Part shown: positions 1 to 9,574 of the stretch, one piece after another
How positions within the stretch are numbered: position 1 is the first letter of the stretch
Layout: every line of letters starts with the position of its first letter
Origin: a virus
Reading direction: 5' to 3' (one strand)
Virus genome (UHGV): UHGV-1960391
DNA: 9,574 bases
Made by a program: the position numbers and the translations under genes
The notes under the pieces: model-generated
The model's input: only the letters and a program-made list of their open reading frames with translations
What the model was told of the DNA's origin: nothing
The model's database searches: none

Positions 1-786
1 GGAGTTCAGGGAGGAACCGCCGGAAGTGCTGCCACCGGAGGAACCGCCGGAAGTGCTGCCACCGGATGAACCGCCGGAAGTGCTGCCACCGGATGAACCG
101 CCAGAAGTGCTACCACCGGATGAACCGCCAGAAGTGCTGCCACCGGACGAACCGCCGGAATTATCACCACCGTCAGTATTACCGTTATTCCCTTTATCAT
201 CAGTATCTCCGCTATCACCTTTATCTTCTGTATCTTCTTTATCAGAATAAGCCGGATCAACAGTTACAGGTTTCCAGGTAGCGGTACAAGAATCTGTACC
301 ATCGGGACAAATAATAGCAACACCCGTTGCCTCATAAATGCATCCATGAATGGTGACATATTTATTCCCTTTATCATCCTTATAAACACCTGACAAAGAA
401 ACATTACTAAGCTCAGGACGGGATAAACAAACCTCTTCCGTGGGTTTAGCTGAATACGAAGCACCAAAATATTGACCGTAAAAGCTATCCTTACACTGAG
501 AATAAACCTTAACACCATCCTCAAAATGGTAAGACTTATAAGAGATCCAGTTACCTGTAACCAGTAAAAATGGCATACCCAAAAGATGATTAGTATCGCT
601 GTAAGACGTAGTACAATAAAACGTATCACCTGAGCAGGATGCATATCCAGTAGTACAGGGTGGAGCTACACCGGCCCTTGCAACACGGGTACCGGAACCT
701 GCATCACCAAGAAATTCTGTCGTTGAAGCTGCATATGCAGAATTAAATGAAAAAACAGCAACAAGGAAAATAAATATATATGCCAA
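1..786 (-). CDS. Minor coat/adsorption protein g3p (pIII)-like, N-terminal 262 codons only; C-terminal part lies beyond the window start
   Basis: Hand translation of the minus strand from TTG at 786..784 (preceded by GGGGGTGAG, in-frame TGA just upstream) is open to position 1. It gives a signal-peptide-like N-terminus (LAYIFIFLVAVFSFNSAYA), a Cys-rich domain, a segment VYKDDKGNKYVTIHGCIYEATGVAIICPDGTDSCTATWKP resembling the Ff g3p N1 domain as I recall it (VWKDDKTLDRYANYEGCLWNATGVVVCTGDETQCYGTWVP), then an acidic stretch and (GGSSGGSTS)n linker. Not in the ORF track because there is no in-window stop. The TTG start is unverified. Confidence 0.7.
   Translation of the reverse strand, partial: MAYIFIFLVAVFSFNSAYAASTTEFLGDAGSGTRVARAGVAPPCTTGYASCSGDTFYCTTSYSDTNHLLGMPFLLVTGNWISYKSYHFEDGVKVYSQCKDSFYGQYFGASYSAKPTEEVCLSRPELSNVSLSGVYKDDKGNKYVTIHGCIYEATGVAIICPDGTDSCTATWKPVTVDPAYSDKEDTEDKGDSGDTDDKGNNGNTDGGDNSGGSSGGSTSGGSSGGSTSGGSSGGSTSGGSSGGSTSGGSSGGSTSGGSSLNS
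14..170. repeat. About 5.5 copies of a 27-bp tandem repeat (GAACCGCCGGAAGTGCTGCCACCGGAT) encoding the Gly/Ser linker of the left g3p
   Basis: Directly visible near-identical 27-bp units at 14-40, 41-67, 68-94, 95-121, 122-148, with a partial sixth unit; the repeat likely continues beyond the window start. Confidence 0.85.
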
Positions 787-802
787 GACTCACCCCCTGA
801 AT

Positions 803-833
803 AAGCAAAAAAAGCGCCCCGCAGGGCGCTGTT
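803..833 (-). terminator. Rho-independent terminator downstream of the pVIII-like gene (minus strand)
   Basis: Inverted repeat AGCGCCC-cgca-GGGCGCT (813-830); on the minus strand the stem-loop is followed by a run of about 8 T (complement of the A-run at 804-812). Position matches the strong terminator after gene VIII in Ff phages. Confidence 0.6.
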
Positions 834-845
834 GTTAAATAACTA

Positions 846-1088
846 TCAGGTTGCGCGGGAAAGGAAGCCTTTAATGATACCGATACCCAGACGGGCAGCG
901 AGTGAAACACCAAGAACGGCAAATGCAGCCGTACCTGCAATGCCAATAACACTGGTAATGGCTGTGCCAATTTCACCAACCGAATCAGGGGTAATAAAGG
1001 AAGGAACAGTAACCGCAGCAGAAGCCGAAGACGACATTACAATACCTGCCGTGGTCAGTCCCGATAATACCAGGGTTTTTACTTTCAT
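846..1088 (-). CDS. Major coat protein pVIII-like (80 aa precursor)
   Basis: Signal peptide [24 protein letters not shown], acidic N-terminal mature segment, hydrophobic helix and basic C-terminus ...[14 protein letters not shown] resembling Ff pVIII ...TIGIKLFKKFTSKAS (recalled). Strong RBS AGAGGAA about 5 nt upstream of the ATG; correct position (after small ORFs, before terminator and gIII). Confidence 0.75.
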
Positions 1089-1113
1089 AAAATTCCTCTT
1101 TGACGATTAAAAA

Positions 1114-1284
1114 TTAATTAACAACATCGCTGAACATCCGGCAGACCAGAGTGAAAATAACACCAAGGCCAAAACCAAGAAGCCAGCAGACAATCCAGAC
1201 ATACAGAACGGCCCAGTAAAGCTCCCCGTCCTGTACACCAGAATTTATTGCGGATAAAACACCGCTGAAATCGAATTCAGTCAT
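1114..1284 (-). CDS. Small hydrophobic protein, candidate minor virion protein (pVII/pIX position)
   Basis: Track ORF 1114..1317; I favour the internal ATG at 1284 (MTEFDFSG...WAVLYVWIVCWLLGFGLGVIFTLVCRMF), which overlaps the upstream stop as ATGACTGA. One predicted TM helix; function assigned by position only. Confidence 0.4.
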   Translation of the reverse strand: MTEFDFSGVLSAINSGVQDGELYWAVLYVWIVCWLLGFGLGVIFTLVCRMFSDVVN

Positions 1285-1417
1285 AATAACGCTGAACAGT
1301 AATGATTTGTGAGTCACAGGCGCGAATCAGTTTTATTCCGATGCCAAAACCTGAAGAGAATAAAATCATTGCAGGCGCAGCGAATAAAACAAAGTTAAGA
1401 AAATCAGCGTCAGACAT
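1277..1417 (-). CDS. Small hydrophobic protein, candidate minor virion protein (pVII/pIX position)
   Basis: Track ORF 1277..1471; I favour the internal ATG at 1417 immediately after the upstream stop (MSDADFLNFVLFAAPAMILFSSGFGIGIKLIR...). Hydrophobic core with GIGIK motif; function by position only. Confidence 0.35.
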   Translation of the reverse strand: MSDADFLNFVLFAAPAMILFSSGFGIGIKLIRACDSQIITVQRYYD

Positions 1418-1421
1418 ATCA

Positions 1422-7233: not shown

Positions 7234-7244
7234 AAATCACCCGT

Positions 7245-7532
7245 TTAATTAAAGAATGGAATGCGGCGTATAAAGAAACGCGTGAACATGGCTGAAACAA
7301 TCATGGGCAAAACAACATCAAAAGACATCAGATTGAGAAACCACAAAACAGAAGAAGGCAACTCTGAAAAAAGCGATGAAATACTGCTGCCATCAGGAAG
7401 ATGAGTCACAATCAACGGAAGAACCTCAGCAACCATAATATAAATTGCAGAGAACATTACAAACTTAATGAGTGCAGTGCGAAAAATAAAACCAAGAGCA
7501 GTATTTATTGCAGCAATAAAAATAGCAAACAT
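7245..7532 (-). CDS. pVI-like minor coat protein (hydrophobic, 95 aa)
   Basis: Highly hydrophobic 95-aa ORF between g3p and pI, the gene VI position in Ff; RBS AGGTGGTGA upstream of the ATG. Confidence 0.55.
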
Positions 7533-7548
7533 AATTCACCACCTGATA

Positions 7549-9252
7549 TCAGGAACGAAGAACAATAAAGAATGAAAGCATGGAGCCAATCAGCGTCATA
7601 ATCACCCTGAAAGTGGCCCTGACTTCATCGGTATCAAGCAGCACACAAAAAGTATCCAGTTGATAATCTTTATTCCAGATATTGAATGTAAAAACAGGAC
7701 ACTGACCCCGTGGAATTGTCAGTGAAAAATCACGCGCAGAAGGCCACATATCCCACAACGGAGAGATAAATGATGATGGCTCAGGTGATGAAATATCTGG
7801 CGTGGATACATCCGGTGCAGTACCAAAATCATTTGTCACGGTCACATTAACATTTACCGTGGCATCACCTGTTACCGTGGTACTGGCAGACCCTGTTCCG
7901 ACGCCGGTTATCGTTCCGCTACCTGTTCCGGTACCTGTTCCGGTACCTGTTCCGCTACCTGTTCCGGTACCTGTTCCGGTGCCTGTTCCGGTGCCTGTTC
8001 CAGTGCCTGTTCCAGTGCCTGTTCCGGTACCTGTTCCGGTACCTGTTCCGGTACCTGTTCCGGTGCCTGTGCCGCTACCTGTTCCGGTGCCTGTTCCGGT
8101 GCCTGTTCCGGTACCTGTTCCGGTGCCTGTGCCGCTACCTGTTCCGGTGCCTGTTCCGGTGCCTGACCCCGTTCCGCCACTGGAGCCAGAACTGCCATTA
8201 CCAGAAACTGGGGTAAAATCCGGATCAACAACCGGAGGCGTATATTTACCGCCAGATGATTCCGTGTCACCTTCCGGCGTAGGCGGTATGGCTATTTCTC
8301 CTGTTCCGGTGAAACCACCGGAATCACCACCGGACATATCTACAGTCGAGCGATAATTATCAACATCAGAAGCAGTAAAATACAATGAAGACGATGAAAC
8401 CCCGTCATAAGATGAAAGGCCATCTAACTGCTTTGTCAGTCCATTAAGGATATCGGCGATATCCTGCGAAGCAAGATTATTACCTGAAATAACTGGTGTG
8501 GAATAATCAGATGAAAACGGATTCTCAGTAACCGCTGCAATACAGGATGAGCTACCCCCTGAAGGTGTAAAAAGCACCTGTCCCTGGTCACAATAAGTAT
8601 CAGAATCAGAACCTAATACTGAAGAATACACATATAAAGAACTTTCAGACCATCGACCATTATACTTAGAAATATAGTAAAAAGTATAACCTTCAAGAGA
8701 ACCAATGCTCTTTTTAGGGGTGTAATAAGAACGAGTCAGAGACGGAGACGAATCTGCCGGAAGACAATTTAAAAGCTGCGAAGCCGTTGAAAAAGGCGAT
8801 GTACTGGTAGCAACGCCACAGGAAGACAATCCCCCAATCCAGACTTTCGACCCACTGGACATGGCAGGTGTCGAGAAAAAGGCATTATACCCGTTTTTCT
8901 CAAGAGCCAGCTTTGCAATTTCTTCCGCAAAAGGTTTACCAACAGCATAAATACCAATACTGACAGTCGTTACACCCAGCCCATAAGCAAGCGTACTCCA
9001 GGTCATTGCCGAAGATGATATTCCAATTGAAGCCGCATAATTTGACGCAAAAGAAGCTGCCGCACGCGAATAACCGGAAAGCGTTGCAGATATTGCGGCT
9101 GCATCAGCACCAAGAGAAATCAGTTTACGGTTAATCACACCTGATAACTCAGATGTAAAAGTATTTGTTGCCAGTGAAGCATCAGCACGGACATTACAGG
9201 AGAAAGACAGAGAAAATAATAAAAACGCTGTCATTGTTTTATTTAATTTCAC
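7549..9252 (-). CDS. Minor coat/adsorption protein g3p (pIII)-like with long (Gly-Thr)n linker
   Basis: Track ORF extends to 9345 (TTG); I favour the GTG at 9252 preceded by GGGGGTGG, giving signal peptide [25 protein letters not shown]. An about 85-residue GT/GS repeat separates the N-terminal domains from a C-terminus [11 protein letters not shown]...FCVLL...[17 protein letters not shown] resembling the Ff g3p C-terminal anchor domain (CRPFVFGAG...IDCDKINLF...membrane anchor, recalled). Start position uncertain. Confidence 0.75.
7915..8165. repeat. About 20 tandem copies of a 12-bp unit (CCTGTTCCGGTR) encoding the Gly-Thr linker of g3p
   Basis: Directly visible near-perfect tandem repeat; produces spurious PVPV (plus) and APEQ (minus) shadow ORFs in other frames. 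Confidence 0.9.
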
Positions 9253-9430
9253 GACCACCCCCAAAATCAAAAGAGAAAGGCTTAACAATGTTGCGAAAAT
9301 CACGGTCAGAAACTTCTGAAACAGATGAAACAATATAATCATCAACAGTTATATTCTGTCGTTCGATAATTTTTTCTATCTTCTTTATTACATCAACGGG
9401 TATTTGTAGCCGGATTTCTGTCTTTTGCAT
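9239..9430 (-). CDS. Hypothetical small protein, possibly ribbon-helix-helix-like, between terminator and g3p
   Basis: 63-aa ORF; MQKTEIRLQIPVDVIKKIEKIIERQNITVDDYIVSSVSE fits a beta-strand/helix/helix pattern; weak RBS; 3' end overlaps the preferred g3p start by 14 nt. Confidence 0.3.
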   Translation of the reverse strand: MQKTEIRLQIPVDVIKKIEKIIERQNITVDDYIVSSVSEVSDRDFRNIVKPFSFDFGGGREIK

Positions 9431-9526
9431 AAAAACTCACATATTACTCTTAAAACCCATAACACAACAAAGCCCACAAAGAGAGCCGTACATCATGAAA
9501 ATAAATTCCCACATAAAGAACTCCGA

Positions 9527-9550
9527 TCAAAAAAGGGCGGATATCCGCCC
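9527..9550 (-). terminator. Rho-independent terminator (minus strand), presumably ending an upstream coat-gene transcript outside the window
   Basis: Perfect palindrome GGGCGGAT/ATCCGCCC (9535-9550), followed on the minus strand by TTTTTT (complement of A-run 9528-9534). Confidence 0.55.
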
Positions 9551-9574
9551 TTCCCCATAAAAACAACTCAGATA

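Follow-up and report, generated by a model that had tools for sequence, protein, structure and literature searches.

Two different genes for adsorption proteins of filamentous phages, found in one short viral sequence, raise the question of what the sequence represents: a single phage, a mosaic, or two prophages lying side by side. The sequence is the UHGV virus genome UHGV-1960391, a stretch of 9,574 nucleotides (nt) hereafter called the window, and the genes are g3pA and g3pB, assigned to two inoviruses here named A and B. A first-pass annotation had recognised the 3' module of one filamentous phage and the 5' module of another, and had left the choice between a tandem of heterologous inoviruses and a mosaic. 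The analysis reported here favors the tandem: the window very probably is where two different filamentous prophages, both looking intact, meet head-to-tail, the likeliest location being the dif site of the Escherichia coli chromosome. Two inovirus units lie next to each other with the same orientation, and a shared attP of the CTX type joins them.

Two inovirus modules and their relatives

In the list of open reading frames (ORFs), the genes pVIII-A, orf63, g3pA, pVI, pI, pIV, Rep, p141, pVIII-B and g3pB reside throughout on the minus strand. Read along this strand, on which all features lie unless the plus strand is named, the first phage is A, at the high-coordinate end of the window. Module A (bases 9574-4465) is the 3' module of an inovirus, and includes a terminator, orf63, g3pA, pVI, pI/Zot and the pIV secretin. 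Module B (bases 4464-1) is the 5' module of another inovirus, and includes an attP hairpin, a regulator of 60 amino acids (aa) called reg60, a Rep of the GPA family, p141, small ORFs, pVIII, a terminator and g3pB. An intergenic region of about 1 kb separates pIV-A from the divergent pair formed by reg60 and a 56-aa ORF. Both halves qualify as inovirus modules by gene content and collinear order (Rep, p141, pVIII, g3p in one, g3p, pVI, Zot-family pI, pIV in the other), as assessed by ORF analysis and by Pfam and PHROG matches, and every element listed in the first-pass annotation is present. Each half is only part of one unit, and complete units of both types are found in L001, L005, L018 and L027 (L-numbers denote the loci or contigs of relatives compared with the window).

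The virion proteins of the two modules are largely unrelated. No significant BLASTP similarity was found between g3pA and g3pB, the best match (E 0.05) falling within the low-complexity linker. The N-terminal regions are unrelated, as had been claimed, since g3pB carries an N1 domain of the Ff type and g3pA has no Pfam match. The linkers differ as well, being (Gly-Thr)n with a 12-nt period in g3pA and (GGSSGGSTS)n with a 27-nt period in g3pB, and the terminators upstream of the two genes (9552-9529 and 830-803) are unlike in sequence. BLASTP detected no significant match between the pI, g3p, pVI and pVIII proteins of A and those of B; the pIV proteins of the two phages are 39% identical. The notion that the window does not hold tandem copies of one phage is thus substantiated, as virion proteins other than pIV are unrelated, and the two halves have different nearest relatives. 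The hypothesis that the window is the permuted genome of a single phage was also considered, and was ruled out because both g3p genes and all the other virion genes differ.

Parts of the window are matched by 205 of 5,426 complete E. coli genomes, and no megablast match was found in the GenBank phage collection; neither A nor B has a near relative among deposited phage genomes. Bases 10-4464 are 99.4-99.6% identical to a B prophage of E. coli 377323_2f, where a B-B tandem resides between hipA and the fim/ydeP side, i.e. at the dif locus. Bases 4465-9574 are 100% identical to the metagenome contig L023 in every compared segment, the (Gly-Thr)n repeat (7831-8219) being left out, and ~99% identical to A prophages that several NCBI E. 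coli assemblies carry between hipA and fimA. The similarity to A runs upstream of g3pA, via orf63 and the terminator, up to the last codons of pVIII-A. Because it reaches the end of pVIII-A, g3pA is part of an ordinary A unit, not a second g3p gene of B. The terminal bases 9346-9574 are 100% identical across all A-type loci. The Rep-p141 module is in turn 94-100% shared between B and phages with the structure of A (L003, L018, L027). No recombinase domain was detected by Pfam in the proteins of the window, nor in the complete dif-located A and B units, and these elements accordingly have no integrase of their own.

The attP elements and the joint between A and B

Two direct repeats of 96 nt, 72% identical to each other, reside in the intergenic region, namely element 1 (4369-4464) and element 2 (4554-4649). 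Element 1 is an attP of the CTX type, in which two inverted dif-like sites are set around a GC hairpin. The site on the phage (+) strand reads AGTGCGCATAA-TGTGACACGCG-TTATGTTGAAA, the site on the opposite strand AGTGCGCACAA-TGACG-TTATGTGTAAA; the dif sequence of E. coli, for comparison, is GGTGCGCATAA-TGTATA-TTATGTTAAAT. The arms of element 1 have 1-2 mismatches to the dif arms, and the central regions measure 11 and 5 nt. Folded as single-stranded DNA (ssDNA), the element forms a forked hairpin with a bulge at the central region (-39.4 kcal/mol, z -11.4). Element 1 is 100% identical to its counterpart in L001 and 99% identical to that in L023, and is common to A and B phages (98-100%). The canonical 28-nt dif of E. 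coli was not found in the window at up to 3 mismatches, and a scan of the window for dif-like sites with a 6-nt central region detected none, the sites present being those with the 11-nt and 5-nt regions.

Similarity to B begins at 4464, similarity to A ends at 4369, and the sole overlap is element 1. The two sides differ in gene set, have the same orientation, and show similarity breakpoints at 4369 and 4465, around the shared attP, as in a heterologous array. Phage A ends at its 3' side with a spacer of 89 nt (4465-4553), found in long and short variants, which is followed by the junction site CAGTGCGCATAATGT (4450-4464), holding the XerC arm and extending 3 nt into the central region. We infer that prophage A gives way to prophage B at this site, by a crossover. 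The spacer is also present in single A prophages (L007, L010), where it leads into AGTGCGCATAATGT|ATATTATGTTAAAT, a regenerated dif, beyond which lies the host fim-side flank. In B prophages (L001), the left end, on the hipA side, has the host XerC arm G(G/A)TGCGCATAATGT directly ahead of phage sequence, which reads GACACGCG at the boundary, and comprises GACACGCGTTATGTTGAAA and the remainder of element 1. The same organization is found in L001, L005, L007 and L010: left ends consist of the host XerC arm and the phage central region, right ends of the phage XerC arm and TGTATATTATGTTAAAT, i.e. a complete dif, and of the host flank, which places the crossover where the XerC arm borders on the central region. 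These hybrid sites were read on relatives 99-100% identical to each half, and the window itself holds the inter-unit joint only. A reconstituted attP is found at B-B junctions and in the window alike. As far as the sequence tells, the joint of the window appears to be what would be expected if the attP hairpin of B had undergone an XerC-mediated exchange with the dif that closes A on its 3' side. As the attP of A and that of B are 98-100% identical, homologous recombination within element 1 would yield an identical joint.

Element 2, placed 89 nt upstream of element 1, which is the active-looking one, likewise has two inverted dif-like sites set around a GC stem, and is a second attP-like forked hairpin with a bulged central region (-38.0 kcal/mol, z -8.7), with AGTGCGTATAA-GGTATATGCCG-TTATGTTGAAT as main site. 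It occurs in A units provided with the gene II module of Ff phages, called A(G2P), or with the GPA Rep, called A(GPA), and in the units of a B variant (B') of strain EC12, and is absent from the B units of L001 and from A units of the IS110 type. Its central region begins with GGTATA, as in the difG site of V. cholerae (PMC3089051), and those of element 1 and E. coli dif begin with TGT. An earlier read-through hybrid could have left element 2 as a scar; alternatively, the element could serve as attP for a different dif, one whose central region is GGTATA.

Several observations weigh against reading the window as the joint of two prophages at dif. The window includes no host flank, and the location at dif is deduced from relatives; neither A's replication module nor the 3' half of B is included in it. 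The joint falls within DNA shared by the two phages, over 96 nt with B of the L001 type, and over up to 320 nt with B' of the EC12 type. Both ends look like breaks of short-read contigs, since the left end is placed inside the 27-nt repeat, and the right end at the start of L023. The windowed identity profile of Rep reveals patchy variation, and no clear hybrid breakpoint. Lastly, the adjacency of pIV-A and reg60/Rep-B is found in none of the other sequences that could be consulted. None of the complete E. coli genomes covers at least 80% of the interval 4150-5050, and scans of viral and metagenome contigs with a junction pattern, validated on the window itself, gave no match.

Some of these facts would be at home in an assembly chimera. 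According to this hypothesis, A and B were both present in the sample, possibly in a different order or at distinct junctions, and the link from pIV-A to Rep-B was created in short-read assembly, via the attP cassette common to both. The switch does occur inside shared sequence (with the EC12-type B', the 320 nt at 4369-4688), both ends of the window resemble contig breaks, and the junction is repeated in no database sequence. Yet, the shared stretch is below normal read lengths, and the B half is 99.5% identical to the L001 type, with which only the 96-nt element is shared. Moreover, heterologous arrays are real, being found on a 485-kb contig and in complete genomes. A chimera is hence regarded as improbable and, even with a wrong join, both phages would co-reside and target dif. 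A free circular cointegrate of A and B, either a replicative form or a plasmid-like molecule, formed by Xer or homologous recombination between attP cassettes, is judged quite improbable. A cointegrate would give the same junction sequence, the window contains no host DNA, and Ypfphi is largely extrachromosomal in many hosts (PMC4266046). Yet, all the related units for which a longer context is available, either joined via element 1 or carrying element 1 at the hipA-side end, are chromosomal, and lie between hipA and the fim side; in addition, a genome of ~17 kb is not known for these inoviruses. Very improbable is one mosaic phage with two adsorption genes (Rep, pVIII-B, g3pB, further genes, g3pA, pVI, pI, pIV), which may invoke the DNA between g3pB and g3pA, outside the window, and the genuine shuffling of modules in L027, where reg60, GPA Rep and p141 are joined to A virion genes, but has to face the similarity to ordinary A units up to pVIII-A, the presence in complete B units of their own pVI, pI and pIV, the reconstituted attP between pIV-A and Rep-B, as at unit boundaries, and the lack of units with two g3p genes among the fetched loci. 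Of the two terms of the original choice, a tandem of heterologous inoviruses is backed by the different relatives of the two halves and by the shared attP joint, and a mosaic structure, true of the family as exemplified by L027, does not apply to this junction.

If the window is the joint of two dif prophages, a plausible scenario is that phage A integrated first, by a XerC-catalysed strand exchange regenerating a functional dif at its 3' end, and that recombination of this site with the ssDNA hairpin of B followed. In an equivalent route, A would have entered via the shared attP upstream of a resident B. By analogy with CTXphi and Ypfphi, the integration substrate would be folded ssDNA, processed by the host XerCD. 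The inverted XerC/XerD-binding sites in the attP of both phages are predicted to pair in the ssDNA genome, giving a forked hairpin. The double-stranded prophage would present no hairpin, and therefore could not excise, as suggested by the biology of CTXphi and Ypfphi. New (+) strands would be formed by Rep-driven rolling-circle replication, which would start at the origin of one unit and stop at the nearest compatible origin downstream. The replication origin probably resides inside the Rep-p141 block, because no other DNA is present in all four contexts of the GPA Rep. In phage P2, the origin lies inside gene A. What the array may produce depends on the replication module of A. If this is of the GPA type, the B unit would supply a terminating origin for A, and the products would be hybrids combining the B regulator with A virion genes, which is the architecture of L027. 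If it is of the Ff gene II type, A and B would merely co-reside at the site. Release of ssDNA circles or hybrids from the array is accordingly a prediction of the model. A broader, rather doubtful hypothesis is that heterologous dif arrays drive the exchange of modules among E. coli inoviruses, given that phages as different in virions and receptors as A and B have one Rep-p141 module in common. Genomes of A would be released with the regulator/immunity region of B, element 2 would possibly be a read-through scar or a second attP, and particles with two adsorption proteins might arise, were both virion sets co-expressed.

Genes of the two phages

Phage A enters the window with the last 7 nt of pVIII-A (9574-9568), as read from the sequence; base 9574 is the same base at which contig L023 starts. 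The gene is followed by an intrinsic terminator (9529-9552), AAGGGCGG-ATAT-CCGCCCTT plus a T run, with GGGCGG-ATAT-CCGCCC-T6 as core. Between pVIII-A and g3pA lies the small ORF orf63 (9239-9430), called as a 63-aa gene also in L003 and L023. Its sequence has, by eye only, a ribbon-helix-helix-like look. The g3pA ORF may be read from 9342 to 7549 as a 597-aa protein overlapping orf63, or from the ATG at 9234. The stop of orf63 is 4 nt ahead of this ATG and, because of the position of orf63, the latter is likely the real start, giving a protein of 561 aa with a signal peptide.

Besides its signal peptide, g3pA has an N-terminal domain of orphan type, which a long (Gly-Thr)n linker connects to a C-terminal anchor. 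No Pfam match was found for the whole protein, and PHROG 7187 and 3942 were matched by its C-terminal part. A homologue search found relatives of the N-terminal domain only in two E. coli protein clusters, the DNA encoding the domain has no megablast match in the 5,426 complete E. coli genomes, and an exact-protein look-up returned no protein identical to the 597-aa or the 561-aa version. The 12-nt period of the linker extends over 7832-8215. The length of the linker is strongly variable among strains, and gene calls for g3pA range from 469 to 601 aa (L003, L008, L018, L021); in several assemblies the repeat has been wrongly annotated as ORFs of the opposite strand.

Next to g3pA lies pVI-A (7245-7532), a minor coat protein of 95 aa with a DUF2523 domain, followed by pI-A (6175-7233), an assembly ATPase of the Zot family of 352 aa (Pfam Zot E 1e-23; PHROG 197), and by pIV-A (4919-6178), an outer-membrane secretin of 419 aa (Pfam Secretin E 2e-25; PHROG 1012 'protein IV of M13' E 2e-115). 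Zot-A is up to 40% identical to proteins of gut inoviruses, these being distant protein matches only. An identical pIV-A protein is found in L003-L012. Scanning the genome_contigs collection with pIV-A identified a single relative, 67% identical, on a 3-kb contig binned as Aerococcus (L015). The contig is probably mis-binned, Aerococcus being an unlikely host for an inovirus encoding a secretin.

The intergenic region 3' of pIV (4650-4918) is common to all A-type units, including those of the IS110 type. The DNA just 3' of pIV-A (4704-4921, corresponding to 3001-3216 in L026) matches at ~85% more than 1,600 enterobacterial plasmids, mostly conjugative, and shorter pieces of it have plasmid matches at 99% or above. 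In plasmid pUTAK-18-1 the match adjoins an unannotated, truncated secretin ORF of 206 aa, and a remnant of an inovirus seems to be widespread on these plasmids. A single-strand origin was considered as the cause of the plasmid matches, and discarded: the ssDNA fold of 4690-4925 is unexceptional (z -1.15), and the matches are pIV remnants. The Rfam search of the window gave no match.

At the other side of the joint, reg60 (3984-4166, plus strand) encodes a divergent 60-aa protein at the position held by rstR (PHROG 2503 E 6e-27). An identical protein is encoded beside Rep in many E. coli dif prophages, and its position suggests that reg60 is likely the repressor/immunity gene of phage B. Downstream of reg60 lies a hydrophobic 56-aa ORF (4194-4364, plus strand), contained in a 142-nt block (7426-7567 in L018) in which B is 99% identical to A(GPA) phages with a differing regulator.

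Rep (1878-3890) is a rolling-circle initiator of 670 aa, belonging to the P2 gpA/phiX174 A family (Pfam Phage_GPA E 3e-48; PHROG 91 'nicking at origin of replication' E 2e-128). Its translation includes YIVKYITK, a two-tyrosine motif of the phiX174/P2 type, and the protein is ~29% identical to the Rep proteins of the Vibrio phages fs2 and VFJ. An exact-protein look-up found no protein identical to Rep, in either the 663-aa or the 670-aa version. The G+C content of the Rep gene (52-57%, 1750-3750) differs from that of the neighbouring virion genes (~39-45%), which fits modules of different origin. Rep is followed by p141 (1422-1847; PHROG 30648, function unknown; no Pfam match), which occupies the position of the ssDNA-binding gene V, and always accompanies the GPA Rep (L001, L003, L018, L027).

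Two overlapping ORFs, of 46 aa (1417-1277) and 56 aa (1284-1114), encode hydrophobic proteins at the position of gVII/gIX. They correspond to genes of 141 and 171 nt, respectively, in L001 and L029, and in L001 both proteins are identical. The major coat protein pVIII-B (846-1088; 80 aa; PHROG 1646 E 2e-4) is likewise identical in L001. An intrinsic terminator (803-830; AGCGCCC-TGCG-GGGCGCT, then a T run) separates pVIII-B from g3pB (1-786). The latter starts with a TTG at 786, and runs off the end of the window, inside the 27-nt repeats, after 262 codons. It includes a signal peptide, the Ff-type N1 domain, of the TolA-binding type (Pfam Phage_Coat_A E 1e-7), and the (GGSSGGSTS)n linker, and is assigned in PHROG to attachment and virion structural proteins. 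A full-length homologue of 528 aa is encoded in L035. The outermost bases of the window (1-9, GGAGTTCAG) are out of register with the 27-nt repeat, and have no match in relatives.

Arrays of inoviruses at dif in E. coli and in other bacteria

The inovirus family to which A and B belong is strongly modular, and heterologous arrays recur at dif in E. coli. The reverse order, B followed by A(G2P), which has the Ff-type gene II/V module, is found on the 485-kb contig of assembly GCA_047973655.1, in which the array ends at dif and fimA. In strain E300010, a short element made of an RstA-type Rep and a pIV-A remnant resides beside hipA, and is followed by a full B phage. In JNE112863, a third phage type is followed by three copies of a 3.7-kb element encoding Rep and a single-strand-binding protein, and lacking morphogenesis genes. 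Elements of the dif arrays of these two strains (17400-21200 in L014; 1-9000 in L037) look like satellites. EC12 hosts a tandem of B', in which each unit has both element 2 and element 1.

Modules have been variously combined. The virion module of A is associated with an Ff gene II-type replication module in L004-L009, and with a GPA-type Rep and another regulator in L018 and L021-L025. The mosaic of L027 (1-7417), inserted next to hipA, has the attP of B, reg60, GPA Rep and p141 in front of the virion genes of A. In L002 and L003, the A virion module is found at non-dif loci along with an IS110-family transposase, and both attP elements are missing. In this sister lineage of A, located at ybiB/hcxB and elsewhere, the transposase gene abuts or slightly overlaps that of the GPA Rep (17755-18720 in L002; 2792-3769 in L003), and the integration module has been swapped.

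Stacking at dif of filamentous elements exploiting Xer is the textbook route by which V. cholerae acquires and reshuffles toxin phages, and, according to a review of 2011, no comparable diversity had been seen in bacteria other than vibrios (PMC3089051). The E. coli dif hosts the same kind of ecosystem, with at least three virion modules, satellites, both orders of A and B, mosaics, and three replication modules, of the P2-gpA, Ff gene II and RstA type. Two integration strategies, the Xer attP hairpin or the IS110-family transposase, are in use among E. coli inoviruses. A tractable setting is thus offered by E. coli to analyze how co-resident inoviruses share origins, immunity and coats. There is also a warning, as short-read assemblies and annotation pipelines will mis-delimit such prophages.

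Much of what is proposed here rests on known systems. Integration of an ssDNA hairpin and dif regeneration have been described for CTXphi, CUS-1 and Ypfphi, and the forked-hairpin attP(+), which is the architecture of CTXphi, has been predicted for CUS-1 and Ypfphi too (PMC3089051, PMC4266046). Integrative mobile elements exploiting Xer (IMEX) of the CTX type integrate by XerC catalysis alone, the process is irreversible, and ssDNA is made only from tandem origins (PMC3089051). The DNA of CTXphi virions extends from one origin to the next, which gives hybrid genomes (PMC3089051; Davis and Waldor 2000 as cited in PMC7307601). The need of tandem arrays for ssDNA production, and the possibility of hybrids and of satellite relations, also pointed out in the first-pass annotation, derive from the literature on CTXphi and Ypfphi (PMC4266046, PMC3089051, PMC7307601).

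Like the CTXphi/RS1/TLCphi/VGJphi arrays at dif1 of V. cholerae, A and B lack an integrase, and have inverted dif-like sites in attP which pair in (+) ssDNA; in either case insertion at dif regenerates a usable dif, and different elements may stack head-to-tail. In contrast to the CTXphi arrays, the host is E. coli, and both units apparently are full phages with their own, unrelated virion/secretion modules. Genes for pIV are present in both, and CTXphi has none; Rep belongs to the P2-gpA/phiX-A type and differs from RstA; in the attP hairpin, only ~20 nt lie between the arms, across the GC stem, vs ~90 nt in CTXphi; and no toxin cargo is found in the window.

Other counterparts are the enterobacterial dif inoviruses. 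Like A and B, Ypfphi of Yersinia pestis and CUS-1 of E. coli O18:K1:H7 have a predicted inverted pair of XerC/XerD sites. Their integration restores a dif on the 3' side, and their tandem arrays, of 2-4 copies, can take in further copies by superinfection (PMC4266046). Their described arrays are however made of copies of one phage, and B differs in having a Rep of the GPA type. A scan with exact pIV-A peptides, in which each species was represented by one genome, detected no Yersinia locus. This result, along with the missing megablast match in the phage collection, argues, if indirectly, against near identity with the Ypfphi/CUS-1 lineage, which would mean ~99% nt identity to the 7.1-kb core common to these two phages.

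UPphi901 and the other UPphi phages of Enterobacterales also are dif-integrated E. coli inoviruses found in tandem (PMC7307601). Non-identical copies coexist in one array in strain ECONIH2, and hybridisation and co-packaging have been discussed as possibilities (PMC7307601). The UPphi phages resemble IKe and I2-2, and differ from those described here by an Ff-type gene II/V module and a GGGES linker in g3p (PMC7307601). The UPphi heterogeneous array is composed of variants of one phage, and in the one reported co-infection with Ypfphi the two phages occupy separate loci (PMC7307601), whereas in the window two unrelated virion modules are adjacent. Our search of the literature found no paper describing adjacent unrelated inoviruses at the dif of E. 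coli. Considered against these systems, the sequence is best read as a heterologous tandem array formed by Xer recombination, as for CTXphi/RS1/VGJphi in Vibrio; the principle is long established, and no new mechanism is implied.

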